From positions 112,312 to 176,311 of IMG/VR virus record IMGVR_UViG_3300007734_000761: a DNA stretch of 64,000 nt; one strand, given 5' to 3'. The notes under the pieces were generated by a model. The model worked only from the letters and a program-made list of their open reading frames with translations. It searched no databases and had not been told where the DNA came from. Origin of the DNA: a virus. A program made the translations under genes and the position numbers. Every line of letters begins with the position of its first letter. Position 1 is the first letter of the stretch. Below, one piece after another: positions 3,001 to 37,255 of this stretch.

Positions 3001-6000
3001 TTCCTGATGAACCACTTGAACCACTTGAACCAGAAGTTCCTGAAGAACCACTTGTTCCACTTGAACCACTTGTTCCTGATGAACCTGACGTTCCAGATGA
3101 ACCAGATGTCCCTGAACTTCCTGAAGAACCTGATGTTCCACTTGAACCTGAAGTACCAGATGAACCTGAACTTCCACTAGTTCCTGAAGAACCAGAAGAT
3201 CCTGAAGTACCTGATGAACCTGACGTTCCAGATGAACCTGACGTTCCAGATGAACCTGAGCTACCTGCGGTTCCTGAAGAACCACTTGTCCCAGATGAAC
3301 CAGAAGTACCTGACGTACCATCAACTCCACTTATACCTGAAGTGCCGCTTGAACCTGAAGTACCAGATGAACCTGAACTTCCGCTAGTTCCTGATGAACC
3401 ACTTGAGCCAGATGTACCAGAAGAACCGCTTGTTCCACTTGAACCTGATGTTCCTGAAGAACCTGATGAACCCGAGGTACCTGAACTGCCACTAGTACCT
3501 GATGAACCTGAAGTGCCAGATGAACCTGATGAACCTGAAGTTCCTGAAGAACCTGAGCTGCCTGATGTGCCAGATGAACCTGAGGTTCCTGAAGAACCAC
3601 TAGAACCAGACGTTCCTGAGCTGCCTGATGTACCACTAGAACCGCTAGTGCCTGATGAACCTGAAGATCCTGAAGTGCCTGATGAGCCACTTGAACCACT
3701 TGTACCACTTGAACCTGAAGATCCTGAAGTACCTGATGAACCAGAGGTGCCACTTGAGCCGCTAGTTCCGGATGAACCAGAAGTACCTGACGTGCCATCT
3801 ACTCCACTTATACCTGAAGTACCTGAGCTGCCTGAACTACCTGATGTGCCTGAACTACCAGAGCTGCCTGATGTGCCTGAACTGCCGCTTGAACCAGATG
3901 TACCTGATGAACCACTAGTACCTGAACTACCTGACGTACCACTTGAGCCAGAAGATCCTGAAGTACCAGAACTACCTGACGAACCACTAGTCCCACTTGA
4001 ACCTGAACTTCCACTTGTTCCTGATGAACCTGAACTTCCTGACGTACCACTTGAGCCAGAAGTGCCAGAACTACCTGATGTTCCTGATGAACCACTTGAG
4101 CCAGATGTACCTGATGTGCCATCTACTCCACTTATACCTGAAGTACCACTACTTCCTGAGGAACCAGAAGTACCTGATGAACCACTTGTTCCTGATGAAC
4201 CTGAAGTGCCACTTGATCCACTAGAACCTGATGTTCCTGAAGAACCTGACGTACCACTTGAGCCGCTTGAACCACTTGTTCCACTTGAACCTGATGAACC
4301 TGAAGTACCACTAGAACCAGATGTTCCACTACTACCACTTGTACCATCAATCCCAGAAGTACCTGATGAACCACTTGTGCCTGAACTACCTGATGTTCCT
4401 GATGTTCCGTTTATACCTGAAATTCCAGAAGTTCCTGAGCTGCCACTTGAACCTGAAGTACCACTAGAACCAGAACTACCTGATGTTCCTGAACTTCCTG
4501 AAGAACCTGAGGTTCCACTACTACCACTTGTACCTGATGATCCTGAACTACCTGATGTTCCTGAACTGCCGCTCGTTCCTGATGAACCTGATGTACCTGA
4601 AGATCCTGAAGTGCCTGATGAGCCTGAAGATCCTGAAGTACCGGAACTACCTGAAGTGCCACTTGAACCTGATGTACCACTTGAACCACTAGTGCCTGAG
4701 GATCCTGAAGTACCTGATGAGCCACTAGAACCAGAAGTTCCTGAACTACCTGAAGTTCCTGATGAACCTGATGAACCATCAACTCCACTTAAACCTGAAG
4801 TACCCGAAGTACCAGATGAGCCTGATGAGCCACTAGTACCTGATGATCCACTTGTTCCTGAAGAACCTGAACTACCTGACGTGCCACTTGAGCCAGATGT
4901 TCCCGAACTTCCACTTGAACCACTTGTACCTGATGAACCTGAGCTTCCTGAAGTACCAGACGAACCTGATGTTCCTGAACTTCCGCTAGTTCCACTTGAA
5001 CCTGAACTTCCACTAGTTCCTGAAGAACCGCTTGAGCCAGATGTTCCCGAACTTCCACTAGTTCCTGAAGAACCGCTTGAGCCAGATGTACCTGATGAAC
5101 CACTTGTTCCACTACTTCCTGAAGTGCCAGATGAGCCTGAGCTACCTGAAGTACCAGATGAACCACTTGTTCCTGAGCTTCCGCTTGTACCGGATGAACC
5201 TGATGAACCGCTAGTTCCACTTGAACCTGAACTTCCGCTAGTTCCTGAAGAACCACTTGAGCCAGATGTACCTGACGAACCGCTTGTTCCTGAAGAACCA
5301 CTTGTTCCACTTGAACCAGATGAACCAGATGTTCCTGAGCTTCCACTTGTTCCACTTGAACCTGAAGTACCTGAAGAACCACTTGAACCTGAAGTACCTG
5401 AAGAACCACTTGAGCCAGATGTGCCTGATGAACCGCTAGTTCCTGATGAACCAGATGTTCCACTTGTTCCGCTTGAACCTGATGTTCCTGAAGTGCCAGA
5501 TGAACCGCTAGTACCTGATGAACCACTAGAACCTGATGTTCCACTTGAACCACTTGTACCTGATGAACCAGATGTGCCTGATGAACCTGAGCTGCCACTT
5601 GTACCAGATGAGCCAGATGTTCCTGATGAACCTGACGTGCCTGAACTACCCGAAGTGCCAGAAGAACCAGATGTACCATTTGTACCTGAAGTACCGTTTG
5701 TGCCAGATGTTCCACTAGTTCCTGAAGTTCCTGAACTACCACTAGTTCCTGAGGTTCCTGAACTGCCACTAGTACCTGATGTTCCACTTGTGCCAGATGT
5801 ACTAAAATCAGCTATTGGAGCATATGTAAATTGTCCAGAACTAGTATCATATGTTATAAAATAACCTGATGAAGAGTTTTCACTTACTCCTAAAACTATA
5901 AAAGGATTTGAACCTGAAATTAATAATGATCCAGTAATTACAGCTGAACCTGAAAACGGAAATCCTGCTCCTCCACTACCTGAAGAAGCTATTCCATAAC

Positions 6001-6178
6001 TAACTAATCCTGTTGCTGGATCATATGTTAAATTATATGAGGCTGAAAGATCATTTTCTACTCCAATAAGTGTTAATGGGTTTGAGCCTGAAATTATTAC
6101 ACTCTCACTAATGCTACCTGTAATAGATAAATCATTAGATAAATACCACCCTAACTGTTCTGGTCTTACTCTTGCCAT
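1..6178 (-). CDS. Giant Gly-X-Ser (collagen-like/PPII) repeat protein, probable virion fibre/whisker; 3'-partial, >=2059 aa
   Basis: ATG at 6178 (MARVRPEQLGWYLSNDLSITGS...), 1 nt after the stop of 6180..7409. Frame stays open to the window edge. After ~125 aa it reads G-T-S/G-S-S triplets for ~5.8 kb. Missing from the ORF track because there is no stop in the window. Confidence 0.9.
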   Translation of the reverse strand, partial: MARVRPEQLGWYLSNDLSITGSISESVIISGSNPLTLIGVENDLSASYNLTYDPATGLVSYGIASSGSGGAGFPFSGSAVITGSLLISGSNPFIVLGVSENSSSGYFITYDTSSGQFTYAPIADFSTSGTSGTSGTSGSSGTSGTSGSSGTSGTSGTSGTNGTSGTNGTSGSSGTSGSSGTSGSSGTSGSSGTSGSSGSSGTSGSSGTSGSSGTSGSSGSSGTSGSSGTSGTSGSSGTSGTSGSSGTSGSSGTSGSSGSSGTSGSSGSSGTSGSSGTSGSSGTSGSSGSSGTSGSSGTSGSSGTSGSSGSSGTSGSSGSSGTSGSSGSSGTSGSSGTSGSSGTSGSSGSSGTSGSSGTSGSSGTSGSSGSSGTSGSSGTSGSSGSSGTSGSSGSSGTSGSSGTSGSSGTSGSSGSSGTSGSSGSSGTSGSSGTSGSSGSSGTSGSSGTSGSSGSSGTSGTSGLSGVDGSSGSSGTSGSSGTSGSSGSSGTSGSSGTSGSSGTSGSSGTSGSSGTSGSSGSSGTSGSSGTSGSSGTSGSSGTSGSSGSSGTSGSSGTSGSSGSSGTSGSSGSSGTSGSSGSSGTSGISGINGTSGTSGSSGTSGSSGTSGIDGTSGSSGTSGSSGTSGSSGSSGTSGSSGSSGTSGSSGTSGSSGSSGTSGSSGTSGSSGTSGSSGSSGTSGISGVDGTSGTSGSSGSSGTSGSSGTSGSSGTSGSSGSSGTSGSSGSSGTSGSSGSSGTSGSSGSSGTSGSSGTSGSSGTSGSSGSSGTSGSSGSSGTSGSSGSSGTSGISGVDGTSGTSGSSGTSGSSGTSGSSGTSGSSGSSGTSGSSGSSGTSGSSGSSGTSGSSGTSGSSGTSGSSGSSGTSGSSGTSGSSGSSGTSGSSGSSGTSGSSGTSGSSGTSGSSGSSGTSGSSGTSGSSGTSGSSGSSGTSGSSGSSGTSGSSGTSGISGVDGTSGTSGSSGTSGSSGTAGSSGSSGTSGSSGTSGSSGTSGSSGSSGTSGSSGSSGTSGSSGTSGSSGSSGTSGSSGTSGSSGTSGSSGTSGSSGTSGSSGSSGSSGTSGSSGTSGSSGTSGSSGTSGSSGSSGTSGSSGSSGTSGSSGTSGISGVDGTSGTSGSSGTSGSSGTSGSSGSSGTSGSSGSSGTSGSSGSSGTSGSSGSSGTNGSSGTSGSSGSSGTSGSSGTSGSSGTSGSSGSSGTSGSSGSSGTSGSSGTSGSSGTSGSSGSSGTSGSSGTSGSSGTSGSSGSSGTSGSSGTSGISGVDGTSGTSGSSGTSGSSGTSGSSGTSGSSGSSGTSGSSGSSGTSGSSGSSGTSGSSGTSGSSGTSGSSGSSGTSGSSGSSGTSGSSGTSGSSGTSGSSGSSGTSGSSGSSGTSGSSGSSGSSGSSGTSGSSGTSGSSGSSGTSGSSGSSGTSGISGVNGTSGTSGSSGTSGSSGTSGSSGSSGTSGSSGSSGTSGSSGSSGTSGSSGTSGSSGTSGSSGTSGSSGSSGTSGSSGSSGTSGSSGTSGSSGTSGSSGSSGTSGSSGSSGTSGSSGTSGSSGTSGSSGTSGSSGSSGTSGSSGSSGTSGSSGSSGTSGISGVDGTSGTSGSSGTSGSSGTSGSSGSSGTSGSSGTSGSSGTSGSSGSSGTSGSSGTSGSSGSSGTSGSSGTSGSSGTSGSSGSSGTSGSSGTSGSSGSSGTSGSSGSSGTSGSSGTSGSSGSSGTSGSSGSSGTSGSSGTSGSSGTSGISGVNGTSGTSGSSGSSGTSGSSGTSGSSGTSGSSGTSGSSGSSGTSGSSGSSGTSGSSGTSGSSGSSGTSGSSGTSGSSGSSGTSGSSGSSGTSGSSGSSGTSGSSGTSGISGVNGTSGTSGSSGTSGSSGSSGTSGSSGTSGSSGSSGTSGSSGTSGSSGSSGTSGSSGTSGSSGTSGSSGSSGTSGSSGSSGTSGSSGTSGSSGTSGSSGSSGTSGSSGSSGTSGSSGTSGSSGTSGSSGSSGTSGSSGSSGTSGSSGTSGSSGTSGSSGSSGTSGSSGTSGSSGTSGISGVNGTSGTSGSSGTSGSSGTSGSSGSSGTSGSSGSSGTSGS
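477..620. repeat. Three near-perfect 45-bp tandem copies inside the Gly-X-Ser gene
   Basis: cttgaacctga(t/a)gttcctgaactgccagaagtacctgagcttcca at 477, 522 and 567. Confidence 0.85.
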
Positions 6179-10426: not shown

Positions 10427-12163
10427 TTAAACTACTTGCAAGTCAGCAACTTCGATCTTACCGTAGTAATCAGGACGGAGCATTTTCTTAGCGTAGCGAG
10501 TCATTACACCTTTACGTGGTGTGAATGTTGTAGGATCATAGATCAATGGAGTCATGATCAATGGAACATAAGGAGCATAAACGGCACCAGTTTCCAAGAA
10601 CTGAGTTCCTTTGTAACCCAACAAGATAGTATTCCACTTCATGTAAGGGTTTTTGTACACCTTGTAACGACCATTGATTGAACCGATTTTCTGAACACCA
10701 AATGCATATTTCATTGTTTCTGCATCTGCGTTATCAGCAGCGAATCCAGGGATTGATTCCAAAATAGTAGCAACTGAAGGAGAAATTACCATAAAGTTAG
10801 CACCACCACGTAATGTTTTCTGGTGGATCAAGTTAGAAACTTTTTGTAATTTAATTCCTAAAGTTTGGAACCAAGACATTTGGTTGTAGTAAACACCAGC
10901 TGTATTGCTTGTGAAAGCAGTACCGTTTGAGTTGATTTGATTACCAACTTGAGCACTCCAGTATTGAGTGTTAGAAGCAGCAGCACCTGTGATCAACATA
11001 CCTAAAATTTCAAGGTCAATTTCCATTGAAATTTGCTCAGATAACATTGAAGTCAATTCAGCTTCAGCGTCTAAGTTTTGGTATGCATTCAAGTCTTGAG
11101 CGAATTCAGGAGTCCACTGAGCTTTCAATTTACGAGTTTCAGCAGTAATACTATCAGAAACTAACTTAATGTTTAATTCAGGGAATTCGATGTCGCTATA
11201 TGACTGTACGTTAGGAGATGCTAATGGGTTTCCACCGGCTTCGTAATCACCAACGTTGAATGGGTTCATAGAACCTTGTTTCAAGAAAGTTACTGTTGTA
11301 GCAACGTTAACTGTACTTCCGCTTAACAAACGATTTGCAAGAGCTGCGCTAGAAGCAGATACGTAGAAAGTAGTAGCAGTATTAGTAATTGTAGTGTAAT
11401 CAGCCAAAATACTATTAGCATTAATAGAAGCTGTAGGAGCAACTAAGTAGAAAGCTTGAACACCAAATACGTCTACAGAAGCTGTAGTATAACCGCTAGC
11501 AATACCTTGAGCAATAGCTTGAGCGTTAATTTGAACGTTAGGAATAACTACTTGATAAATTTGACCAGCATTACAAGAGTTAATGTAATTAGAATCGAAA
11601 TTGATTAAGTAGAAGTTTGAACCAGTTGTAATTTGAGTTACAGCAGAAGCAGATACACCAGAAGCTGAGAATTCGTTACGAGAGTATCCAAATCTACCAG
11701 CACCATAGTAACCACCTTCAGCTAAGTTGTCGAAGTTACTGTTACCAAATCCTGGAGCTGGAGTACCATAAAGTGAATCACCAGAAGTAAATGGAGTTTT
11801 AGTAGTACCATACTGGAAGTCCAAGTAGAAAATAAGACCAGTTGGCATTTGCATTGGCTGAACAGAAACGAATTCTTTAGCCACTACTTGTCCAAAAATC
11901 TTACGTACCATTGGAAGAGCAACACCAGCCCATTGGTAACCTTGACCAGTTGTAAAACCAGAAGTAGCACCAGCAGTAGTGTTTGTTTCAACGATAAGTT
12001 CCTTGGCTTGGTTTTCGAGCAACATCGACATGTTTGTTTTGTCGTATCCGCTCAAACCTTCCAATAAACCAGATTTAGCCCATTTGTTTGCTAAACGAGT
12101 CGCGTCGCCTTGCAAAGACTGCCATGGGTTAGCAGATTCGAGAAGTTGATTAATTGTTGACAT
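10427..12163 (-). CDS. Major capsid protein (T4 gp23-like) with Ser/Thr/Ala-rich insertion
   Basis: VSVQPMQMPTGLIFYL, TRKLKAQWTPEFAQDL, YAPYVPL, FTPRKGVMTRY. Confidence 0.95.
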   Translation of the reverse strand: MSTINQLLESANPWQSLQGDATRLANKWAKSGLLEGLSGYDKTNMSMLLENQAKELIVETNTTAGATSGFTTGQGYQWAGVALPMVRKIFGQVVAKEFVSVQPMQMPTGLIFYLDFQYGTTKTPFTSGDSLYGTPAPGFGNSNFDNLAEGGYYGAGRFGYSRNEFSASGVSASAVTQITTGSNFYLINFDSNYINSCNAGQIYQVVIPNVQINAQAIAQGIASGYTTASVDVFGVQAFYLVAPTASINANSILADYTTITNTATTFYVSASSAALANRLLSGSTVNVATTVTFLKQGSMNPFNVGDYEAGGNPLASPNVQSYSDIEFPELNIKLVSDSITAETRKLKAQWTPEFAQDLNAYQNLDAEAELTSMLSEQISMEIDLEILGMLITGAAASNTQYWSAQVGNQINSNGTAFTSNTAGVYYNQMSWFQTLGIKLQKVSNLIHQKTLRGGANFMVISPSVATILESIPGFAADNADAETMKYAFGVQKIGSINGRYKVYKNPYMKWNTILLGYKGTQFLETGAVYAPYVPLIMTPLIYDPTTFTPRKGVMTRYAKKMLRPDYYGKIEVADLQVV

Positions 12164-12182: not shown

Positions 12183-13583
12183 TTATTTTGTAATAATACC
12201 AGCTAATTGTTGCATTCTTGTAATTTGATCATCTGTACTGATAATAGGTGACTTAGCTGTTGTACCACCTACGATACTAGAAGCAAATGATTTGTGTTCT
12301 TTCAAAGTAGTTTTAGAACTTACTTTAGAAGTTTTTACTGTGTTTTTCAATACTTCGTAAATGTTTTTAGCTTCAGTTAAAGTTTGTGCTTTATCAAAGC
12401 TATTAACAACATTTACTTTTTGGTTTTCAGTTAAGTTGCTTGCTTTAAACAATTTATTTACATAAATCAATTTAGCATTTAACAAATTAACTTCATTTAA
12501 TTGGCTACGAAGACTCTTAATTACATTGATTGCTTCTTCTAATTCTTTTTCTTTTTCTTTCTTTTTAGCTTCATCTACTTCTTTAACTTTTTCGTTGAGC
12601 TTCATAGAAAGTTTATTTTTGTAAGCACCATTTAAACCAGATTTCTTGTCACCAGCTGCACCATATGGTGCACCGATTTTGTTTTTAGATTTACCTAAAC
12701 CAAAAGGAGCATTAGCTTTCTTATCGTAAGCTTCGTCTAATTCTTTTTCTTTCTTACCACCTTTGTACTTAGCACGCTCATCAAGCTCTTCTTTTTCTTT
12801 TTTCTTTCTTTCGTAAAGAGCAAATAATTCGTCTAATTCTTCTTCTTTTGACTTTTTCTTTTTAGGTTTTTCTTCAGTCTCTTCTTCGGTTTCGTCTTCG
12901 ATGTCTAAGTCGAATTCATCGTCACCTCCAGCGTCCATGTCCGTCATGTCCATGTCTGTCTCTTCGTCTCCAGCAGCACCAGCTTCACCACCCATGACAG
13001 CTCTAATAGCGTCTTGGATCATGTCGCGAAGTTCGTCTACTGTTACTTCGTCGATGCTCTCACCTCCACTAGCTTTTTCAAACATAGTGTTTTCTTCGAG
13101 TTCTTCTTTACCTTCTTCCATTTCATCATCGCCTTCATAAATTTCATTGGCTTCTTCTTCAAGCTCACGTAAGATTTCTTCAAGATCGTAATCTTCTTCT
13201 AAATCTTCTTCGCTCATTTCAGAATTCATTTCCATCATGTCGTCGTCTTCTTCAGAAAGAGAATTGAAAAGTTCTTCAAGATCGAGTTCTTCCATGTTGT
13301 CATAGTCTTCTTCAAGTTCGTCTTTTCCTTCTTCCATTTCTTCAGTTTCATCTAATGAATCAATGAGATTGTCTTTGTCTACGATGTACGTAGCTTTTTC
13401 TTTAAGCTCTTCCTCTTTCTTTTCTTCTAATTCGTCAGCTTCCATTACACGTCTTTCAAACATGCTCTGAATGCGAGGCATAAAAGATTCTTCAAGGGCG
13501 GCTTTTGCGTTAGCGACGGCAACTTCACGTAAAGTTTTGGCGTCAGCAATTGCGTCTTTAAATAATTGTTGGTTGTTTGACAT
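12183..13583 (-). CDS. Prohead scaffold/core protein (gp22-like)
   Basis: Very acidic coiled coil with many LxE sites, between protease and MCP; ends RMQQLAGIITK. Confidence 0.8.
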   Translation of the reverse strand: MSNNQQLFKDAIADAKTLREVAVANAKAALEESFMPRIQSMFERRVMEADELEEKKEEELKEKATYIVDKDNLIDSLDETEEMEEGKDELEEDYDNMEELDLEELFNSLSEEDDDMMEMNSEMSEEDLEEDYDLEEILRELEEEANEIYEGDDEMEEGKEELEENTMFEKASGGESIDEVTVDELRDMIQDAIRAVMGGEAGAAGDEETDMDMTDMDAGGDDEFDLDIEDETEEETEEKPKKKKSKEEELDELFALYERKKKEKEELDERAKYKGGKKEKELDEAYDKKANAPFGLGKSKNKIGAPYGAAGDKKSGLNGAYKNKLSMKLNEKVKEVDEAKKKEKEKELEEAINVIKSLRSQLNEVNLLNAKLIYVNKLFKASNLTENQKVNVVNSFDKAQTLTEAKNIYEVLKNTVKTSKVSSKTTLKEHKSFASSIVGGTTAKSPIISTDDQITRMQQLAGIITK

Positions 13584-13722: not shown

Positions 13723-14352
13723 TTATTTTATGCAACAAACTCCCGTTTGATTACAAATAATATCTGTAATCAGTGAGTTAATTTTTGAGTATTGGTTAGA
13801 TATTTGTTGAGTGTATTGTTTACCTTCAGCTAAACTTACTGGTTTCATGTAAGCTCCATGTGTACTTGGTGTACTTACAAAATCCCAACATACTAAATCA
13901 AAATCATCTTGTACTTCTACAGTATTTTCGCCTAATTGTTTAACACTACCCATTCCTCTTGAACTAATTCCTACAGTAATGTTATTTAACAATAAATCTT
14001 TTAAAATATTTCCACTAGGTGTATTAAGAATTTCAATACGGCCAAATAAATCATCACCTTCCCATCGTAATTGTTTAATATTGTGACAAACATTTTTTAA
14101 ACTAATAACAGAAGACTCTGGGTGATCTAATTCACCCAAAGCTCTGTTTTGGGCAATCGGGCCTGCAATGTATTTTTCTACTTCTCTATGGAGAATTGCT
14201 TTAGGATAAACACGACCGTTTTCATTTTTGGCATCTGCACGCTGTACAATACCTTCTACCACTAAATTTTTATTAGGGCTCATTTTAGCCTCATTAAGAG
14301 ACTGAGGTGTTGGCTTGAATGCCAAATATTCTATTAAAACTTGTTTAGTCAT
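13723..14352 (-). CDS. Prohead protease (T4 gp21-like)
   Basis: NENGRVYP, ALGELDHP, GISSRGMGS, WDFVSTPS; probable start MTKQVLIE at 14352. Confidence 0.93.
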   Translation of the reverse strand: MTKQVLIEYLAFKPTPQSLNEAKMSPNKNLVVEGIVQRADAKNENGRVYPKAILHREVEKYIAGPIAQNRALGELDHPESSVISLKNVCHNIKQLRWEGDDLFGRIEILNTPSGNILKDLLLNNITVGISSRGMGSVKQLGENTVEVQDDFDLVCWDFVSTPSTHGAYMKPVSLAEGKQYTQQISNQYSKINSLITDIICNQTGVCCIK

Positions 14353-15394
14353 TTGGATCGTTTGGGTTATCAAACTTAGCATTAAAACCTTGATCTGTTA
14401 ATTTTTTAAGTGTACTCATATCTCCAGGTTTTACAGATACTATTCCTCTAGCCATTTCATGTACTAAAGTTAAAATTTGATTTTTAGTAGTAGGAGTTAA
14501 CTTAATTTTTCTAGAGTCTTTTACGTTTACATCTTCGTTTATGTCTTCTTCAAAACCACTTAATGTTCCTCTATTGTAAAATCCTGGGCCGGGTTTATCT
14601 GCTGTTTCTTGATTACTAATTGTGTAATCCATTCCTTCTTCTACACCCTTACTAAGAAGTCTTTCTAAAGCACTAGCTAAATCTTTTTTACCTTCTTCTT
14701 TTAACTTAGCTACTAACTGTTTTAATTTTGCTAATTGTTGTGCAGGAATGCCTTTAGACTCACTCATTGGAGCATCATTAATATTTTTAATAGCTTTCTT
14801 TACTTTATCTTGAATTTCTTCGTCTTTATCGCGTTTTTCAGCGTATTGTCTTAGTAATTTAATGACTTGATTTTTCTTAGCTGTATCTCCTTTAATAGCA
14901 TCTCTAACACTTTTAATAAGTTCTCCGTTATTATCCATAGCGGCTAAATAAGATGCTGGATTAAGTGTATAAACATCATATCCTTCATTTAATTTAGCTG
15001 GTTCCATTCCAGAAGACTTATATTTACCTTTAACTTCGTCTTTAAGACCATATGGAGCGTCTTGTTTATCAGCTTTAGGCATTTTACCATCTTTTTTTAT
15101 GGCTTCAGCACTTTTAGCAGTATTTTTTACTCCAGGTTTTTTACCAGATCCATATTCACCCACCATTTTAATGGTTTCGTTTACTAACATGTTAGTGTAA
15201 AAATTAGGATCTTTTTTAAGATTTTTCAAAACTTTACTTTGGGCTTCTTTGATAGTATCAACGTTAATGGTTTTACCAGAAGTTGTTAATTCATAATCCA
15301 TCCCATTTTCAAATTCGTAAATATTGACTTTGTCTATTTCACGAACTACAGGAGTGATGTATTTATCAAAGTAAGATTTATTAGGATTACTCAT
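14345..15394 (-). CDS. Head-cluster protein, probable prohead core component
   Basis: Lys/Glu-rich with several xxE sites (VNE, LNE, MSE, INE); lies between portal and protease. Confidence 0.5.
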   Translation of the reverse strand: MSNPNKSYFDKYITPVVREIDKVNIYEFENGMDYELTTSGKTINVDTIKEAQSKVLKNLKKDPNFYTNMLVNETIKMVGEYGSGKKPGVKNTAKSAEAIKKDGKMPKADKQDAPYGLKDEVKGKYKSSGMEPAKLNEGYDVYTLNPASYLAAMDNNGELIKSVRDAIKGDTAKKNQVIKLLRQYAEKRDKDEEIQDKVKKAIKNINDAPMSESKGIPAQQLAKLKQLVAKLKEEGKKDLASALERLLSKGVEEGMDYTISNQETADKPGPGFYNRGTLSGFEEDINEDVNVKDSRKIKLTPTTKNQILTLVHEMARGIVSVKPGDMSTLKKLTDQGFNAKFDNPNDPND

Positions 15395-15409
15395 GGTAAT
15401 AAATATGTA

Positions 15410-15556
15410 TTATCCTTGTCCTACGTATCTTTTTACGTAATTTTTACTAGATTTTGATTTACTTGCTTTTGTTTTAGCATGAATACCAGGGCGTCTACGT
15501 TTAGGTTTTACTTGAAAAACTTTAACTGACGATGTTTTTGTCTTTACCTTTGCCAT
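15410..15556 (-). CDS. Small very basic protein, 48 aa (not in the ORF track)
   Basis: MAKVKTKTSSVKVFQVKPKRRRPGIHAKTKASKSKSSKNYVKRYVGQG; fills the gap and overlaps the end of 15522..16313. Confidence 0.75.
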   Translation of the reverse strand: MAKVKTKTSSVKVFQVKPKRRRPGIHAKTKASKSKSSKNYVKRYVGQG

Positions 15557-19130: not shown

Positions 19131-19154
19131 TCTTATATATGATAATAAATATTA

Positions 19155-24127: not shown

Positions 24128-24382
24128 ATAAATTTTTAATTTAAGTTTACCATTTCCTTTAATAGCTCTATGCCATTTGTGTTTAGGAATGTAAATTGGT
24201 TTATTTAATGAAGTTGGTAATTCGTTGTCTAATTGAATTTTCCAATTTGTTTCACCAATTATTTCAATTGTTCTGTCTTCATTATCACGATGCCACATCA
24301 ATTCTATAGGATCAATGTTTTCATCAAATTCCCTAATAATATATTTGTCAGTAATTTCTAAATCTTTATACGGCTTTATCAT
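24119..24382 (-). CDS. Small cupin-like protein
   Basis: WHRD.EDR and IYIPKHKWHRAIKG. Confidence 0.6.
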   Translation of the reverse strand: MIKPYKDLEITDKYIIREFDENIDPIELMWHRDNEDRTIEIIGETNWKIQLDNELPTSLNKPIYIPKHKWHRAIKGNGKLKLKIYLV

Positions 24383-24791
24383 CTGTAAGAGGACCGCCTA
24401 CAACCCAAGCATTACAAGTTCGAGCTGCAGCACATTTAAACTTTAAAAACCTACAGTATCCTAATTGACCTGCTTTAATAACATCAAATGGATCTTCTGT
24501 ACCTTCATCACTACCTATTCCTTTAGCTATGCAATCTAATGTTTTTGTTGTAATATCAAATGCAGCACAGTTACCACAACGAGAAGATTTAGCTTCTTCT
24601 ATAGAATCAAGTTTCCACATGTCTACTTTATCCTGCCAAAATTTATCGTTTGGTTCATTTGGGTTTAGAGGACCATATCCATACTCATTAATTGCTTTTT
24701 GTCTGTTTTGAAGATTTAATTCAATATTTTGAGTGGGGGCAGGACATTTACTTATTTCTGCTTCGTTTAATATATTAATTAGTTTTATCAT
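24366..24791 (-). CDS. Cys-rich putative internal head protein
   Basis: Leader MIKLINILNE; CGNC...C..C...C. Confidence 0.6.
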   Translation of the reverse strand: MIKLINILNEAEISKCPAPTQNIELNLQNRQKAINEYGYGPLNPNEPNDKFWQDKVDMWKLDSIEEAKSSRCGNCAAFDITTKTLDCIAKGIGSDEGTEDPFDVIKAGQLGYCRFLKFKCAAARTCNAWVVGGPLTDDKAV

Positions 24792-25108
24792 TTTTTATCT
24801 TTAATTAACAATTCACCTAAAACTTCTAAACGACCAACTTCTCTTTGAAATTCAATTTGAGACATGTCTAAAGAGATTTTTTTATAAGTTTCCTCGTATT
24901 CTTTTTTTGCTTTTTCTAAATCTAATTTACCTTCACTTGCCTTTTTGTAATAGGGTAATTTAACTTTAAAGTGGTGCCAAGTTAAAAGCGCTAAACCTCC
25001 TTTTTTGTGAGCATTATCAGCAATTTTTTTAGCTCCACTCATACGAGTTTGACTAAAATCTTCAAATTGGTTTTTTGCTTCTACTAGTATGTCTTTAAAT
25101 TTAATCAT
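24788..25108 (-). CDS. Putative internal head protein
   Basis: Leader MIKFKDILVE. Confidence 0.6.
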   Translation of the reverse strand: MIKFKDILVEAKNQFEDFSQTRMSGAKKIADNAHKKGGLALLTWHHFKVKLPYYKKASEGKLDLEKAKKEYEETYKKISLDMSQIEFQREVGRLEVLGELLIKDKK

Positions 25109-25464
25109 TTTTTTAATCGTTGAGTTTTTCTTTTAGATGCTTCTTTTCTGGCAGTGATGTATGTTAGTCCTTTTTTTAAACGAGCTTTTACTTCAGGATT
25201 TTTGGCTTTACTATATGCTGCTCTTACACGTTGATGAATTAAGTTAATAATCTGTGATTGGCGAGCATGGCTTTTTGCTTTAAAAGATGATTTAGACAAT
25301 GTATTTTTAATGTCTTGAACAGTTTTAAATTTAACACCTACAGTATCTGTTGGATCTTCATCTGTGTATAAACGGCGACTTGATCCTTTTGGCTTTTTAC
25401 CTGTGCCTACTTTAGGATCAGCCTCATTTAAAGATTCTTTTAGAAGATCTACTAGTTTAATCAT
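25105..25464 (-). CDS. Basic putative internal head protein
   Basis: Leader MIKLVDLLKE-SLNE; highly Lys/Arg-rich. Confidence 0.6.
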   Translation of the reverse strand: MIKLVDLLKESLNEADPKVGTGKKPKGSSRRLYTDEDPTDTVGVKFKTVQDIKNTLSKSSFKAKSHARQSQIINLIHQRVRAAYSKAKNPEVKARLKKGLTYITARKEASKRKTQRLKK

Positions 25465-26189
25465 TTTGTTTTACCCCATGTTTTACCTTTACCTGGTCTT
25501 TTACATTGAGAAGGTGTAGGTCTACATGATGGATATTTTGATCTTACCTCACCTTTTTTACGGCCACAAGGTTTACATTTTCCATCACGACAAGTATTAC
25601 AATCTACCCATCCTCCTGTTTTACCTGGTGCTCCTTTACGTTTAAACCAAGTTCTTAATGTTTCTTTTTTAGCTTCATCTAATTCAGATTTTCTATTATT
25701 AATATAAGTTTCAATATCTTCGGCTTTATAGCCTAATAGTTGACCTATTCTTCTAGCATCTTCATCAGTAGCTTTATATGACAAATAACCATTGTATTTT
25801 TCTGCTATGTCTTTTAACTCATTAGCTTCATTTTCTGCTCCTTTTACATAAAAAACATAAGCTCTATGGGGATTTGAAGGAACTTTAATAGTACCTAAAT
25901 CAAACTTTTTTACAATATCCCAAAAATTTTTTTCAGGAAAATCCATGCCATCTAAAACCATAAAACCTAATTTTCGTTTTCCATCTAAAACAGTTTTTAT
26001 AGAACCTTTATCCTCGTATGCTTCTTCAGCACTAATTTCTTCTTTTAGTCCCTTCCAAATATTTCCTTTACGACATCTAACAATAGCACCAGACTTATAT
26101 GCTGAAGGTTTACTGTAACGACGATCTGCTATGCGTTTACAGCGATCTTCAGTAAGTACTTCAAGTAATATGTTAGTAAGTTTAATCAT
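25461..26189 (-). CDS. Multi-segment putative internal head protein
   Basis: Leader MIKLTNILLE; three segments split by LKE and LDE; basic Cys-rich C-terminus. Confidence 0.6.
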   Translation of the reverse strand: MIKLTNILLEVLTEDRCKRIADRRYSKPSAYKSGAIVRCRKGNIWKGLKEEISAEEAYEDKGSIKTVLDGKRKLGFMVLDGMDFPEKNFWDIVKKFDLGTIKVPSNPHRAYVFYVKGAENEANELKDIAEKYNGYLSYKATDEDARRIGQLLGYKAEDIETYINNRKSELDEAKKETLRTWFKRKGAPGKTGGWVDCNTCRDGKCKPCGRKKGEVRSKYPSCRPTPSQCKRPGKGKTWGKTK

Positions 26190-27064
26190 ACAGAAATTGA
26201 AGTTGATATGTCACCTGTAGGTATTAACTTACCACCCATATTTTCTATTTTTTGTTTCATTTCTTCAAAGTTTTTTGGTATTACACTTACTTTAAAACTT
26301 TTTGGGTTTTCTTGAACAAATTTAAAAAAATCATTTAATGTAGGAAATAAACCTGTTATATTAGGACGATTTTTATAATCATATTTTTTTAGTTCAACAG
26401 CTTCTCCGGGTATTTTTAAGTACTGTTTTTTTTCTAAAAATGGTTTTAAAAATCCATATTTAGTTGCTCTAAATACTGTTATTTTTTTTAATTTACCATT
26501 AAAATAAAAAATTCCTAATTCCTTTTTTATTCCATTTTCTACACTTCCATATTGTACTGCTAGTCTTCTTTGTGCTTCTCTAGGTAATTCTATAGTAAAA
26601 TTTTCTGTTACCGAAAAATCTATTTTATTTACGTTTTTATCTATTTTTATTTTTCTTAAGGCTTTAGATAAATCAATGCCTTGAGTCAAATCAGAAGTAG
26701 GAGCTGATGAAACTGTAAACTCATCATCTATGTCTACTCCTAAGTCTTTTGCTTTAATAGCTGCACCTTCTACAGGCATTATAATGCCATTCTGCAATAA
26801 AGCTTTTATAAACGTACTAGCGTTACCTGTTCCTTTAATGTTGAATACTTTTTTAACATCATCTACATTGAAATGATTTATGTCTTCTAAAGATTCCATT
26901 TTCAAAACAATGTCTTGAAATCTAGGTCCTGAGCCTCTAACATTAGATATTTTACTTTCCCAGTCATCTGTTAAAGTGTAGAACTTCTTTATCTGTGGCA
27001 TTTCAGCCAAATGTCTTTTTACAGCTTCTACTAGTATTGCTTTTATTAAATTTCTTTTTTCCAT
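26186..27064 (-). CDS. Hypothetical protein, probable internal head protein
   Basis: N-terminal ILVE/LAE; internal DDEFTVSSAP resembles the polyprotein tag. Confidence 0.5.
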   Translation of the reverse strand: MEKRNLIKAILVEAVKRHLAEMPQIKKFYTLTDDWESKISNVRGSGPRFQDIVLKMESLEDINHFNVDDVKKVFNIKGTGNASTFIKALLQNGIIMPVEGAAIKAKDLGVDIDDEFTVSSAPTSDLTQGIDLSKALRKIKIDKNVNKIDFSVTENFTIELPREAQRRLAVQYGSVENGIKKELGIFYFNGKLKKITVFRATKYGFLKPFLEKKQYLKIPGEAVELKKYDYKNRPNITGLFPTLNDFFKFVQENPKSFKVSVIPKNFEEMKQKIENMGGKLIPTGDISTSISV

Positions 27065-27065
27065 A

Positions 27066-27698
27066 TTACCAAAATCCTGAGTATGATGATTTTAATCCTA
27101 ATAATTTAGCGTAGCGAGGTAAACGACAACTCCAGTAACTTGCTTTTGTTCTGTCTTTTTTATTAGGACAATCGTGACGTTTTGAAAAAGCAGCTCTTGC
27201 TTTAGAGTTATTAATTTTAGCTGACAAACCAGTAGTGTCACCAAATGATACTTTTTTAACTCCACCACCTGGTTTTCTTACATAAACATAGAATTTTTTA
27301 GATCCACCACGTTTTGGTTTACCAATTGGAGGTATTTTTTTCTTTTTATCTGCTTCTTCTAAGTCTACTTCTTCTAATAGTAAGTCTATTGGAACTAATT
27401 TACCATTGTAAAAATCAAACGTACCAATTTCTGTTTCTTCTAAAAGTTGCTTGTCAGCTCCATCGAAAGTTATTTGTTTATTTTCATGTAACCATCTAGC
27501 TTCTTGCCATAAGTCAAGAAAAGATTCACTGCCATATCTAAATGTATTTTCAGTAATAGGAAGTTTTTGATAAACATGATATAACATGTTAGGACTAATT
27601 TTTTCTGGGTTAGTCGATTCTGTTAGTAAAGGAGCTTTAGGTCTGGCGCAAGTTGGACATCCTGATCCTTCTAACAATATGTCTTTTAACTTAATCAT
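27066..27698 (-). CDS. Putative internal head protein with basic C-terminal domain
   Basis: Leader MIKLKDILLE; LTE and LEE sites; KKFYVYV...KVSFGD...RHDC...YWSC. Confidence 0.6.
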   Translation of the reverse strand: MIKLKDILLEGSGCPTCARPKAPLLTESTNPEKISPNMLYHVYQKLPITENTFRYGSESFLDLWQEARWLHENKQITFDGADKQLLEETEIGTFDFYNGKLVPIDLLLEEVDLEEADKKKKIPPIGKPKRGGSKKFYVYVRKPGGGVKKVSFGDTTGLSAKINNSKARAAFSKRHDCPNKKDRTKASYWSCRLPRYAKLLGLKSSYSGFW

Positions 27699-29449: not shown

Positions 29450-30075
29450 TACTTACGACGTAATTTTGCTTTTTCTATTCTTTCACCTTTAGCAACACCG
29501 GCACCAAAAGTATTTTTTTCACCTTTTTTACCAAAACGTTTTGCGTCTCTAGCACGTTTATAATCAGTATCGCCTCTTCCTTCATAGAATTGAGCACCTA
29601 AAATAACATCTGAGTCAGAAGAACGCATAGATGGCATATCATCCATTTCTTCACTTTCTTCTCCAGCTAAATAATTATAAACTGAGTTTAGATAGTCCTC
29701 TGCTATAGTAAGTTTTGACTGTACCCATGCATCTAACTGTTCTCCATCGTCAATCATATTACACAACTTATCAGTTAAACTTTTAATAGAACGAAGCTGA
29801 CCATGAGCCATATCTGATTCATCATCTGGCTGCTTCCAATCATCTTCTTCTAAATCCTCAGCATCAAAAGACATATTTGGTCCTGTTGGATTTGGAACTA
29901 ATGGTTGTTCTTTCATATTTTTAGCAGCACGTAATGCTTTAAAATCAGCACCTGTAATTTTATCTTTAGGTTCAGCTGCAGATGCTATTTTCATTTGTTT
30001 ATCAGACAATTCATTAAGCTCTTTTAAAGCTTGCTGCATGCGCCATTCGTGGATGTCAAAATTATTGTTAGTCAT
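29449..30075 (-). CDS. Hypothetical acidic protein, probable internal head protein
   Basis: LNE, MKE, LEE, FYE sites separating short segments. Confidence 0.5.
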   Translation of the reverse strand: MTNNNFDIHEWRMQQALKELNELSDKQMKIASAAEPKDKITGADFKALRAAKNMKEQPLVPNPTGPNMSFDAEDLEEDDWKQPDDESDMAHGQLRSIKSLTDKLCNMIDDGEQLDAWVQSKLTIAEDYLNSVYNYLAGEESEEMDDMPSMRSSDSDVILGAQFYEGRGDTDYKRARDAKRFGKKGEKNTFGAGVAKGERIEKAKLRRK

Positions 30076-30415
30076 TTTTATATTCTGTTACTTCGGCGCC
30101 TAATACATTAGGCATTTTTTTACGGATATTTTCTAAAATCTTTTTAAGTCTTTCAGAAGTTACTTTACCTTCTTTAGCACTTACCTTTATTCCTGTTGAG
30201 TCTTTAATCTCAAATTTAAAAGGTGGTTCAGACATTTTTGATTCTTTAGCTAATTTAGAATAGTTACTAGGATTGCTTAACCATTTCATAGCACTATTTC
30301 TTAAACCTTCTGATTTAAATACAAAACCTGGTGTTAGTACCTCTACTACTTCCTTTTCTTCAGAAATAATACCAGCTAACGCCTGCATTCTTTTTATTTC
30401 AACTGCTGATTGCAT
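30068..30415 (-). CDS. Hypothetical protein with N-terminal RMQALAGI motif
   Basis: EIKRMQALAGIISE matches the scaffold C-terminus. Confidence 0.55.
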   Translation of the reverse strand: MQSAVEIKRMQALAGIISEEKEVVEVLTPGFVFKSEGLRNSAMKWLSNPSNYSKLAKESKMSEPPFKFEIKDSTGIKVSAKEGKVTSERLKKILENIRKKMPNVLGAEVTEYKND

Positions 30416-30776: not shown

Positions 30777-31367
30777 TTATGATAAATATGTATCAATCTT
30801 AGCTCTTTGGTCAGCAATCCATTGTTTAGTTTCTTTTATTTGTTCTGGAGTTAAACCTCTACCATCCCAACTTTCTACTTCTCCAGTTTCACTCATAACT
30901 TTTTCAAAACCATTAGAAACAAAATCATCAAATTCTTTTTCGGTTTGATCTAAAATGTGTAAATGATTTTTAAAATACATATTCTTCGCGTATTCATCAA
31001 AGATACCGGCCAGTTTCATGTTAGTTTCTTCTTTAGTCACGCACTTTGGACATTTATGCGCAAGCTTATAAATATGTTTTACATACTCACTTTGTCTAGC
31101 TAAAGGTTCACTACATTGAGGACAAGTAAGAGGCATAATATTTGTGTCTTTAAACTTAGCTAACTTACTTACAGTACGTTTTACACCATTTTTAATAGTC
31201 CACGTTTTACCATTTTCATCCCAAACGTCTCCTTCTTGTCTTTTTACTTGAGATTCATAACCTGCCTGAATTGTAGTTCTATCTCCAGTTTTTTTCGTAA
31301 TAATATTACGCATTCGCTGAACTTCACGTTCAGTAAACTGTCTATTTAGTAAAGTTTCTTTACTCAT
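30777..31367 (-). CDS. Zn-finger hypothetical protein
   Basis: CPQC...CPKC. Confidence 0.55.
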   Translation of the reverse strand: MSKETLLNRQFTEREVQRMRNIITKKTGDRTTIQAGYESQVKRQEGDVWDENGKTWTIKNGVKRTVSKLAKFKDTNIMPLTCPQCSEPLARQSEYVKHIYKLAHKCPKCVTKEETNMKLAGIFDEYAKNMYFKNHLHILDQTEKEFDDFVSNGFEKVMSETGEVESWDGRGLTPEQIKETKQWIADQRAKIDTYLS

Positions 31368-33666
31368 ATTTAAATTTATATAACTTTTTTATTGATTCTC
31401 TTGAGTCTTCTGGATTGTTTTTTATTCCTGTTCCACCAGCTTGAATAAACTGACTAACGTTTGAACCCACATCATCAATCAACATATAACCTGGTTTTGC
31501 TTCTGTGTGTTTGTCTTTAGCTTGTTTGTATACTCTTCTGTCTTGAGGAATATTTAAATGTTTGTCTACCCATTCATTTTTTCCCTTTTTAGCATCTCCG
31601 TTTGGATCTAAACCTGGTGATGATAATATCCATACTTCTATACCTTTTTCATCAGCTATTTTCATAACGGCCTTATAAAGTTCTTCTCCACCTGGATTCC
31701 AAGGCATTGTTGACCAAAACTTTACTTTGCCTTTATTAATTATATCCCAAGCTTTATTAGCACCATATTTTCCAATGTATGATTTAAAATCTAAATTTTC
31801 TTTGTTGTATTTTTTAAATTGATCATCAAAACCAGCTAATACTCCATCTAAATCAAAGTAGATTCTTGTAATAGGAGGATTTGTTTCTTTAGATTCATTT
31901 AACATTCCAATATTATAAATGCTAGGATTTTGTTTTCCATAGTCTCTCATTAATATACCGGCAATAGCATTGGCATCATTTTCATGTTCACTACCAGTTT
32001 CGCCTGAATCTGGTTGTAATAAGCCCATTTCGTTTTGTTTAGCATGAACTAACTCATGAGCTAACGTGCGAAGAACATCAACTATATTTCTGTTACTAGG
32101 ATTGACAAATATATGATGTTTTGATGGAACATATGCTCCAAAACTTGGTTGATCTTCACCATATTCATATCTAATTTCAAACGAAGGAGGATTATGAATT
32201 TGAAGTTCGTTGCAAGCATAAGTCATGAATTTTTCAAAAAGTGAATTTTTATCAACAGACTCATTTAAAGATAAAGTTTTATCTATAAAAGAATTTTTTA
32301 GATTATTAAGTTTTTCTAAATAACCTGTGTTTCTTAAATTTTTAAATGCTAAGTTTTCTAATGAATATTCACCATCTTCATCTAATCCTGTTTGTCTAAA
32401 GTTTTTAAGACGTTCTTTAATTTTATTTGTAAGTTCTATCGCTTTTTCAGGATTATTTTTACCTATTTTTTCTAATTTATCTATTTGTTGTTTAAATAAC
32501 TTTGCTTTCTTTTCAATTTCTTCGTCAGGAATATTTATTTCTACAAAAGACGGTTTACGTAACCATTTATCATTCATTAAGCTGTATTCACCTCTATATT
32601 CAGGATGGTCTTTATTATCTTGAATGTAAACTTCAATATTTTGTTTGCCTAATTTTAAATCATGAACCCTATTCCAGTTAACCTTTGCTTCATCAAAGTA
32701 TTTTTTTAACAATTCAGGATTTTCAAATTTGTCAAAATCAACAACAATGTGTAAATCTATGTCAGATGTTGGAGTATAATTATAATTTACACTACTTCCT
32801 GTTAAAAGAATATCTTCAAACGGTTCAGGTATTTCTAATCCTTCCCAAAAATAATTAGCTACTTTTAATAATAACTCTTTTACTTTTGGGTCTACTTTAT
32901 CATCAGTATCAAAAATTAAAGGATTTAATTTATTTTGACTCTTATATTCTAACCAAACCCACTGAGGTTGTTTTTTAGGGTTTGGTTGAGTTCCTTCTTG
33001 TAAACTAGCTGGTTCAGGAAAATTAATTCCTAAAACTCTCTGAATGTCATCTAAGTATCCTTTTTGTATTACTGCTTCAGGAAATAAACTTTTAAAGTAG
33101 TTATATGTAGTATTATAATCGTTTAATGCTTTTTTATCTCCAGGATTATTTTTTACTTGAAGATATCTTTGTCTTAATTCAGCTATTGTAGCTCTAAAGT
33201 CAGTTCCACTAACTCTATCACCATCACTATCTACAAATTGATCATCTACAATTTCTTCTTGAACTCTATCACCAAAAGCCTCTTTTAAACCTTTAAAATA
33301 TTCTAAATCATCTGCTTCTTTACCAGCAGCAGCAACATAAGCTTCTCTATTTAAGTCATCTCCAAACCATCTATAAAGATCTCTAATAGGAGATTTAGTC
33401 TTAGCAATTTCAACTTTAATTTTTGGATTTGGTTGGGCTTTTAAATAAATGTCCCAAATTGCTTTACTTTGTTCTGCTGTAATTCCACCTCTTTTACCGT
33501 GACCTATTAATACATTTACTTGAGTAATATAAGGTTTTGCTGCTAATTGTTGAGCAGCGGCAAGATGACCTTTATGTGGTGGTTTAAAACCTCCAGGATA
33601 CCAACAAATTTCAGGTTTTTTGGCTACTTCTTCTCCTATTAATTTTCCTATTTCTGCTACGTTCAT
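31360..33666 (-). CDS. Four-domain enzyme: HxGH nucleotidyltransferase, Pol-beta-like nucleotidyltransferase, HExxH metalloprotein, HAD 5'(3')-nucleotidase-like
   Basis: PGGFKPPHKGH...VSGT; TGSSVNYNY...SDIDLH; TLAHELVH..Q...E; IYFDLDGVL...LSS...LIDD. Confidence 0.8.
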   Translation of the reverse strand: MNVAEIGKLIGEEVAKKPEICWYPGGFKPPHKGHLAAAQQLAAKPYITQVNVLIGHGKRGGITAEQSKAIWDIYLKAQPNPKIKVEIAKTKSPIRDLYRWFGDDLNREAYVAAAGKEADDLEYFKGLKEAFGDRVQEEIVDDQFVDSDGDRVSGTDFRATIAELRQRYLQVKNNPGDKKALNDYNTTYNYFKSLFPEAVIQKGYLDDIQRVLGINFPEPASLQEGTQPNPKKQPQWVWLEYKSQNKLNPLIFDTDDKVDPKVKELLLKVANYFWEGLEIPEPFEDILLTGSSVNYNYTPTSDIDLHIVVDFDKFENPELLKKYFDEAKVNWNRVHDLKLGKQNIEVYIQDNKDHPEYRGEYSLMNDKWLRKPSFVEINIPDEEIEKKAKLFKQQIDKLEKIGKNNPEKAIELTNKIKERLKNFRQTGLDEDGEYSLENLAFKNLRNTGYLEKLNNLKNSFIDKTLSLNESVDKNSLFEKFMTYACNELQIHNPPSFEIRYEYGEDQPSFGAYVPSKHHIFVNPSNRNIVDVLRTLAHELVHAKQNEMGLLQPDSGETGSEHENDANAIAGILMRDYGKQNPSIYNIGMLNESKETNPPITRIYFDLDGVLAGFDDQFKKYNKENLDFKSYIGKYGANKAWDIINKGKVKFWSTMPWNPGGEELYKAVMKIADEKGIEVWILSSPGLDPNGDAKKGKNEWVDKHLNIPQDRRVYKQAKDKHTEAKPGYMLIDDVGSNVSQFIQAGGTGIKNNPEDSRESIKKLYKFKYE

Positions 33667-34505
33667 GGTTTAGCAAATGTTTTTACTGCTCCTACTGCTT
33701 CTCTATAATTTAGAGGTTTAATAATTTTTAAAAACTTTTCAACAGTTTTAAATTGATCCTTAATATTTTTAACAGCATCACTAAATTTCTTCTCTGCTGC
33801 TTTTTTCTTTTCTTCTTTTGCCTTTAAAGTTTCAGGATCTGGTAAGTCTTTTGATGTTTTTACATCAGAAGGTTGGGGTTTACTGAAACTAGATCTGTAT
33901 TTTTCTGGATCTGTTTGTATTAACTGTTTAAAGTAATCTTCTAATTCACCTGACTTTAGTACTTTTTCAAATTTATTAACATTTGCTTTTTCAGCAGGTG
34001 ATAATTCTGTTTGAACAACTAAATACTCAATACCAGGAATGCTTTTATAGCTACTTATTTGGTTATATACTTTAGCCCAATTATTTAACACAACTTCTTT
34101 AGGTAATTTTCTACTTCTATTAAAATTTCTTAAAAAGCTAACAATAGGACTTCCGTAAAGTGTAATAACCATTACTTTATAACCATTTTGTTGTGCGTTA
34201 CTCACAATTTCTGCTGTTTCTTTAAAATTTTGTCCTGTAGTATCATAAATAAAATTTTGTTTTTTACTAATAGCATCAGGAATAGCCTTAGTTCTTATAA
34301 TAATATTATTTTTACTTATGTTAGGTCTATCAGGATCATCTTCTGGATTAAAAGTATCAGGATTGAATACTCTAAAATCTGAAGGTATATTTCTTACTAA
34401 ATCATTTATTAAAGTTGATTTACCCATTCCTGCTGCTCCTGATAGAATTATTGCTTTTGGTTGTGTGCCAAAAACTTCTAATAACAAAGACTGCAGATTA
34501 ATCAT
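33663..34505 (-). CDS. P-loop kinase (zeta toxin/AAA_33-like) with leader MINLQSLLLE
   Basis: GAAGMGKST, NPD, IYDTTG, RNFNRSR. Confidence 0.7.
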   Translation of the reverse strand: MINLQSLLLEVFGTQPKAIILSGAAGMGKSTLINDLVRNIPSDFRVFNPDTFNPEDDPDRPNISKNNIIIRTKAIPDAISKKQNFIYDTTGQNFKETAEIVSNAQQNGYKVMVITLYGSPIVSFLRNFNRSRKLPKEVVLNNWAKVYNQISSYKSIPGIEYLVVQTELSPAEKANVNKFEKVLKSGELEDYFKQLIQTDPEKYRSSFSKPQPSDVKTSKDLPDPETLKAKEEKKKAAEKKFSDAVKNIKDQFKTVEKFLKIIKPLNYREAVGAVKTFAKP

Positions 34506-34518
34506 ACATATAAATATG

Positions 34519-36790: not shown

Positions 36791-37255
36791 TTATTCAAAG
36801 TCTCTTCGGTAGAATTTTCCTAAAATGTTATCGCAATAACATAGATTATCTTGTAAACAGCCGTTTTCCATTTGGGCTTTTACTTCATAATATGTTAAAA
36901 GTTTTTTATTAGAAACAATGTAAAGTATTTCTCTAGAAAATTCAGTGTCTAATTTACCTTTTTTAAATTCTAAAAAATCTTTACTTGAACCCCAATATTC
37001 TAACCAGTCACTTTCTTTTTGAACTACTTTTGTAGTTGATCTTCTACCAGGGCCAGTTTGTTCTAATATTTCTTTTTTAGTAAGTTTTTTCTTTATGTTG
37101 TGGAAAAGAACTTTTTTACCAACATAATATCGTTTTGTTTCTTTATGGATTATTTTATAAATAAACCCATAAGTGTTTTCAGGAAAATCTGAAAGTTCGT
37201 TGAAATATTTAATATCTCCTTTTTTAAAAGTAAACCACATGCTATGAGCGTTCAT
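36791..37255 (-). CDS. GIY-YIG (Seg-like) nuclease-family protein
   Basis: YGFIYKI......YYVGKK, YWGSS, FSREIL, E, N. Confidence 0.7.
   Translation of the reverse strand: MNAHSMWFTFKKGDIKYFNELSDFPENTYGFIYKIIHKETKRYYVGKKVLFHNIKKKLTKKEILEQTGPGRRSTTKVVQKESDWLEYWGSSKDFLEFKKGKLDTEFSREILYIVSNKKLLTYYEVKAQMENGCLQDNLCYCDNILGKFYRRDFE

Follow-up and report, generated by a model that had tools for sequence, protein, structure and literature searches.

Why should a phage enzyme chain carry the recognition motif of the phage's own head protease at every joint between its domains? The question is raised by P0001, a protein of a T4-like phage whose hosts are aquatic bacteria. It has 768 residues in four unrelated modules and is encoded in the window, that is, the 64,000-nucleotide stretch (positions 112,312 to 176,311) that forms the terminal 64 kb of the 176,311-bp virus record IMGVR_UViG_3300007734_000761 and carries every gene on its minus strand. 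As all the joints bear this motif, [LI]xE, the protein is probably packed into the capsid, split into its parts and injected along with the DNA. On the comparative evidence set out below, the reading we favour as the probable one is that P0001 is a capsid-targeted polyprotein that the prohead protease would cut into four enzymes delivered together with the genome. The gene is organized as follows.

31360..33666, minus strand: polyprotein gene P0001, 768 aa, from the open reading frame list and its translation
33631..33666, minus strand: leader M-N-V-A-E-I-G-K-L-I-G-E, ending I-G-E (E12), a candidate capsid-targeting sequence
32995..33630, minus strand: module 1 (residues 13-224), HxGH nucleotidyltransferase with a NadD/NMNAT-like fold; C-terminal end S-L-Q-E
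32260..32994, minus strand: module 2 (residues 225-469), Pol-beta-type nucleotidyltransferase with a helical tail; C-terminal end S-L-N-E
31894..32259, minus strand: module 3 (residues 470-591), minimal HExxH zincin; C-terminal end M-L-N-E
31363..31893, minus strand: module 4 (residues 592-768), NT5C-type HAD 5'(3')-deoxyribonucleotidase-like domain

The three internal motifs lie exactly where one module gives way to the next. SLQE ends at E224 (nt 32995-33003), SLNE at E469 (nt 32260-32268) and MLNE at E591 (nt 31894-31902), and the AlphaFold model (pLDDT 76) contains low-confidence inter-domain linkers at residues 224-245, 462-474 and 587-595, each holding one junction glutamate (E224, E469 and E591). 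P0001 contains 10 [LI]xE sites, and all three linkers are hit in 0.26-0.48% of random placements or shuffles. An earlier note on this DNA had named the four domains and placed the three motifs at their boundaries; sequence and fold searches bear out the domains, the motifs stand at the positions it gave, and the boundaries in the model coincide with them.

Conservation singles out the same sites. More than 280 metagenomic homologues (53-97% identity) were found, from which 37-41 were picked for the alignments. Among these, the leader motif I-[GA]-E (residues 10-12) is retained in 39/39, SLQE in 40/40, the L-x-E at E469 in 40/40 and the L-x-E at E591 in 33/37. At the joints, the leucine and the glutamate are essentially invariant while the middle residue varies (LNE/LVE/LTE at one, LNE/LKE at another), and five of the six internal [LI]xE sites drift (Fisher p = 0.024 for junction versus internal conservation).

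The motif is that of a protease encoded in the same window, within a gene order typical of T4-like phages: terminase, portal, two core genes, a Peptidase_S77 protease, an acidic scaffold-like gene and then the major capsid gene, in which the run from portal to capsid matches T4.

13723..14382, minus strand: prohead protease of the T4 gp21 type (Peptidase_S77; PF03420 107.8 bits, above cut-off; phrog_207 4.7e-57)
12183..13583, minus strand: acidic, [LI]xE-rich scaffold-like protein, between the protease and capsid genes

T4 gp21 cuts after the glutamate of L/I-x-E (PMC3012670, PMC9026906). The scaffold-like protein contains 26 [LI]xE sites against 11.3 expected from its composition, and the capsid propeptide contains four. 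The protease at 13723-14382 is the proposed processing enzyme of the polyprotein.

The joints are also where relatives gain and lose modules. In a scan of about 120 listed homologues, E224 or E591 is the site of all 53 insertions or deletions of at least 25 aa, and every inserted module closes with its own [LI]xE. The inserted pieces comprise a DUF5661 domain, a 33-aa zinc ribbon, a ParB-like DGxHR module, a second HExxH module and several modules of no recognized type; at least nine or ten further optional modules occur in relatives, and Pfam gave no match to optional modules apart from DUF5661. Homologues reach 1319 aa as strings of beads, each ended by L-N-E, L-K-E, L-Q-E or I-E-E. Every full-length homologue in the alignment has modules 1-3, which form an invariant core, and module 4 is optional, being absent from relative L009. 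Where no module follows the zincin, the glutamate is gone and the chain ends ...MKF, ...LNK or ...LN. In homologue P0119, from which the NT5C domain is deleted, the joint reads DLND; in T4, an aspartate at the P1 position blocks processing (PMC9026906). An apparent swap of the C-terminal domain in homologues of 77% coverage was rejected, as the NT5C domain is kept there and extra modules are inserted before it. Relatives thus insert, delete and stack modules exactly at the LxE sites, the behaviour that the earlier note had proposed to look for, and its proposal of a precursor that the prohead protease separates into enzymes carried in with the DNA finds strong support in this comparison of sequences.

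The N-terminus of P0001 resembles a targeting tag. The capsid-targeting sequence (CTS) of T4 comprises 10 residues, with positions 4 and 7 serving targeting and positions 8 and 10 serving processing (PMC3012670, PMC9026906); counted back from E12, the polyprotein leader places I, L, I and E at the corresponding positions 4, 7, 8 and 10. The internal joints carry the processing positions only, as expected for cleavage sites without a targeting role. Such leaders are common in this genome: an [LI]xE ending at residue 9-13 is found in 28 genes, against 13 +/- 2.8 in internal control windows, and about 15 genes share the leader M-I-K-L-x-x-[IL]-L-x-E, which matches T4 CTS positions 4, 7, 8 and 10. 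The tagged proteins are mostly unrelated beyond the tag, and a Pfam search of ten tagged neighbour proteins returned nothing above cut-off.

One group of tagged genes forms an array. Six consecutive, mostly overlapping genes (window 24366-27698, minus strand) all start M-I-K-[LF]-x-x-[IL]-L-x-E, one of them with a 3-residue extension, and are otherwise unrelated. At the same position, relative L007 has a much shorter and different gene set. The array resembles the variable internal-protein loci of T-even phages.

Evidence for virion association comes from a cyanophage; in cyanophages, each module is encoded by a gene of its own and bears its own leader. In the T4-like cyanophage S-CREM2, the products of the adjacent genes ORF154, ORF155 and ORF156 were found by mass spectrometry in CsCl-purified virions (PMC10665884, Table 3). 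ORF156 is homologous to module 2 (38.5% identity across residues 239-467), and ORF154 is a cytidylyltransferase, an HxGH enzyme, that starts MKNFSSFLTE-A, near the T4 CTS pattern. Stand-alone homologues of module 2 (S-CRM01, S-CREM2, Cr30 and Maribacter phage Molly) carry short leaders ending ISE, LLE or LVE and themselves end ...SLSL, exactly where the joint begins in P0001. In Molly (L005 202-1384), a NUDIX protein has ...KSLIE-S... after its catalytic domain and the next gene starts MKTGKIKTLIE-S, which in sequence looks like one tag used once internally and once N-terminally.

The closest cultured relative is Flavobacterium phage immuto (capsid protein 49% identity), followed by Microcystis phage Mel-JY01. 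The immuto locus is syntenic (primase, exonuclease, one further gene, fusion protein, zinc-ribbon protein; gp088 and gp087, NC_055915), and its HxGH, zincin and NT5C domains share 35%, 29% and 28% identity with those of P0001. Its arrangement differs: the order is Pol-beta, HxGH, zincin, and the NT5C domain is a separate gene with a leader ending LLEE.

We infer targeting, cleavage, injection and substrates along the following lines. The polyprotein gene would be transcribed together with the late genes, and its 12-residue, T4 CTS-like leader would take the whole 88-kDa precursor into the prohead core. There, the gp21-type serine protease would cut after E12, E224, E469 and E591, freeing four enzymes of about 24, 28, 14 and 20 kDa: the HxGH nucleotidyltransferase, the Pol-beta nucleotidyltransferase, the zincin and the NT5C-type nucleotidase. 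The freed enzymes would stay in the head, enter the host with the DNA and act on nucleotides or nucleotide-bearing molecules before phage gene expression. The [LI]-x-E joints would double as standard connectors at which relatives add, drop and stack modules.

Several observations weigh against this reading, and some of them speak for one rival, namely that P0001 is an uncut, cytoplasmic multi-domain enzyme of nucleotide metabolism whose L-x-E joints are fusion relics or recombination-promoting linker strings. The gene belongs to a block for replication and nucleotide metabolism, where it follows the genes for the primase and the exonuclease, and this placement is syntenic with immuto, whose 907-aa fusion is annotated simply as NMNAT. 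Genes for HxGH and Pol-beta transferases adjoin in several phages, which suggests a shared pathway. Relatives repeat the linker string LNE-[SA]-K-Q-S-N, and such long repeats could serve homologous recombination and be kept for that rather than for cleavage. Over its full length, P0001 has no excess of [LI]xE (10 sites where 9.4 are expected), one internal site (I/L-K-E, residues 416-418) is conserved as well as the joints, and the leader has 12 residues instead of 10 and is unlike the genome's consensus tag. The S-CREM2 parallel is itself qualified, since the detections are based on only 3-6 peptides per protein, with no N-terminal peptides reported (PMC10665884), and the match of ORF154 to module 1 is confined to the surroundings of the HxGH motif (E 0.044); we found no proteomic or biochemical data for this phage or immuto, and no immuto virion-proteome paper. 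We nevertheless judge an uncut enzyme unlikely. A recombination linker leaves unexplained why leucine and glutamate are invariant with a free residue between them, why the glutamate decays where no module follows, and why the motif recurs at the end of about 15 leaders and many times over in the scaffold; in addition, the S-CREM2 homologues are virion-associated.

Two further rivals concern how the protein would be processed. The embedded zincin could do the cutting, in the capsid or after injection, with the prohead protease uninvolved, as in a polyvalent protein. This role has been proposed for the zincin domains of phage polyvalent proteins (PMC5512222), and here the zincin is part of the family's invariant core and its catalytic residues H537, E538, H541 and E562 are invariant. 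Self-processing is quite improbable all the same: [LI]-x-E also ends the leaders of many proteins that lack a zincin, it is the established specificity of the T4-type protease encoded here, and the fold equally matches non-processing enzymes (SPRTN, YbeY, IrrE). Alternatively, the protein may be packaged like T4 Alt, a large enzyme that, as T4 head reviews establish, loses only a short propeptide; it would then be injected as one multi-domain enzyme with its internal L-x-E sites inaccessible. L467 does stand at the end of a predicted helix (449-468), as inaccessibility would have it. We regard this course as very unlikely, given that the three internal sites all lie in low-confidence, presumably flexible linkers and that the glutamate is lost only where no module follows, which points to use of the internal sites.

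The favoured reading, a polyprotein cleaved in the prohead, joins features of known systems. With T4 IPI, IPII, IPIII and Alt it shares a gp21-family protease and, exactly so in the kinase encoded upstream and about 14 other proteins of this phage, leaders of about 10 residues with hydrophobic positions 4 and 7 and [LI]-x-E at 8-10; the tagged proteins, like those of T4, are diverse, mostly unrelated and encoded in a variable array, and T4 delivers the enzyme Alt in this way. T4 cargo, however, consists of single-module proteins, whereas here one leader would carry at least four enzymes with protease sites at every joint, and relatives exchange modules at those joints. Polyvalent proteins of phages and conjugative elements (Iyer, Burroughs, Anand, de Souza, Aravind 2017; PMC5512222) also combine several unrelated enzymatic domains per chain in variable sets that include zincin, nucleotidyltransferase and ParB-like modules, and delivery with the DNA and proteolytic release of the domains have been proposed for them (PMC5512222). 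In that model an embedded zincin does the processing and no cleavage motif is defined, whereas here the motif of a separate prohead protease stands at each joint; Pol-beta nucleotidyltransferases are listed there in the conjugative type only (PMC5512222). In phiKZ-like jumbo phages (201phi2-1, SPN3US), inner-body and ejection proteins are cut by gp175/gp245 at S/A/G-x-E (PMC9026906). The likeness lies in head cargo that a T4-related protease cuts after glutamate, frequently at more than one site in a chain, but those cuts mostly remove propeptides of structural inner-body proteins and are not described as freeing strings of enzymes, and the P3 preference differs (PMC9026906). CTS-targeted cargo and polyvalent proteins are thus already known; what is new is a multi-enzyme chain with a prohead-protease motif at every joint that serves as the breakpoint of module exchange, and a literature search found no paper on such a chain.

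If the polyprotein is indeed processed in this way, the T4 internal-protein paradigm widens from single small proteins to strings of enzymes freed by the head protease, and polyvalent proteins, whose release has so far rested on embedded peptidases, gain a concrete mechanism at the level of a motif. It would also account for the ability of large phages to bring in several activities just as their DNA enters and to swap them fast. The polyprotein would be the natural counterpart of engineered T4 expression-packaging-processing vectors, so that its joints and leaders could be used directly for packaging foreign proteins in phage heads. Through the related virion proteins of S-CREM2, the idea can be tested in phages that are in culture, and the widespread, uncharacterized pair of nucleotidyltransferases is flagged as likely injected effectors. 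More tentatively, and as something we would call quite possible rather than probable, a general plug-and-play cargo system may operate in the T4-like phages that infect aquatic Bacteroidota and in relatives of these phages. In it, [LI]-x-E would be the universal connector, a single capsid-targeting leader would suffice for packing, freeing and injecting whatever module stands between two of these motifs downstream of it, and injected enzymes would be swapped as cassettes. The HxGH/Pol-beta/zincin trio would then be a conserved injected toolkit for modifying nucleotides, shared with cyanophages as separate virion proteins, and its target would be a nucleotide of host defence or signalling.

The modules differ in how closely they match known families. 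Module 1 contains a PPHKGH motif, and its Foldseek matches (5deo, E 1.2e-4; 9fyb, E 5e-4; NadD/NMNAT range 1e-4 to 3e-3) establish a likeness to NadD/NMNAT at the level of the predicted fold only: its Pfam CTP_transf_like score is 14.2 bits, below the cut-off of 21, and a profile search against PDB sequences gave nothing significant (best E 0.41). In distant homologues (P0110, P0111, P0115), the first histidine of HxGH (residue 31) is replaced by T or N (TKGH/NKGH), and the SGTDFR motif (residues 153-158), the second motif of the module, is lost. Judged by these sequence changes, some lineages may have a module 1 that acts on another substrate or is no longer active. A 154-aa protein encoded two genes upstream of the primase (window 36791-37255, minus strand) matches phrog_447, annotated as NAD synthetase (1.4e-21), a neighbour that may bear on an NAD-related reading of module 1, the alternative offered by the earlier note.

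Module 2 matches phrog_36119 (7e-43) and Pfam NTP_transf_2 (22.5 bits, just above the cut-off of 21), and its catalytic residues G290-S291, D302, D304 and E345 are invariant among homologues; its likeness to CD-NTase, ANT and MNT enzymes is weak. For modules 2 and 3, Foldseek returned weak matches only (E above 0.007) and the profile search against PDB sequences nothing significant. The zincin assignment of module 3 is based on VIA-align (SPRTN Z 8.8, AQ_1354 Z 8.7, selecase Z 7.6, abylysin Z 7.5) together with its motif, H537-E538-x-x-H541 with a downstream E562, which is invariant among homologues. Module 4 matches phrog_2643 (6e-20) and, by Foldseek, 2jao, 4yih and 3bwv (E ~1e-5); it has a DxDxV motif I, and its catalytic residues D605, D607, D731 and D732 are invariant among homologues, while its Pfam NT5C score of 18.3 bits lies below the cut-off of 24.8.

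Upstream of the polyprotein, two features complete its operon.

33663..34505, minus strand: P-loop kinase of the Zeta-toxin/AAA_33 type (Pfam Zeta_toxin 4.7e-12), with leader MINLQSLLLE
34510..34517, minus strand: ATATTTAT, a promoter-like motif, 4 nt before the kinase ATG

The TGA of the kinase overlaps the ATG of the polyprotein as ATGA, the coupling described by the earlier note, which was also right that the kinase bears a leader: its 10 residues fit the CTS-like tag exactly and belong to the genome-wide set. A functional coupling of the two proteins, also suggested there, finds no support in the comparison. The kinase is an optional cassette: in relatives L007 and L009 the polyprotein gene comes straight after that of the exonuclease, with no kinase gene in between, and immuto gp089, in the equivalent position, is not homologous to it. 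The idea of RNA end healing by kinase and HAD phosphatase was rejected with it: kinase and NT5C domain are both optional cassettes, with no obligatory kinase-phosphatase link, and the HAD domain belongs with the NT5C deoxyribonucleotidases rather than with Pnkp.

The motif before the kinase is the most enriched upstream octamer, with 47 of its 58 coding-strand copies genome-wide lying within 45 nt upstream of start codons. It is found before genes of the portal, core and tail, before most of the tagged genes and before the operon of kinase and polyprotein; in L007, which lacks the kinase, it stands directly before the polyprotein. It is presumably a late promoter. Copies lie 4-23 nt before 47 start codons, often 4-8 nt (for example, window 34510-34517, 19131-19150 and 15395-15410); should ATATTTAT be a -10-like element of late promoters, many late transcripts would have little or no leader.

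Beyond the operon, a blastn search against phage records gave no DNA-level match to the locus, and a PHROG search of the neighbouring genes assigned no family to most of them. Among the head genes, the major capsid protein (window 10427-12163, minus strand) has 578 aa, and its PHROG major-head match spans residues 237-560 only, which leaves an N-terminal part of about 170 aa unmatched beyond the capsid propeptide. The scaffold-like protein ends ...RMQQLAGIITK (window 12183-12230), a 115-aa protein (30068-30415, minus strand) starts ...KRMQALAGIISE (window 30359-30415), and the motif of that start and of the scaffold end is also found inside a 198-aa protein of L007 (7282-7878). The motif common to the three may be a second docking motif. 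At the start of the window (1-6178, minus strand), a 3464-aa protein runs upstream to genome position 108095 with 47% GC content against about 30% elsewhere, and the long open frames on both strands there suggest a highly repetitive gene.

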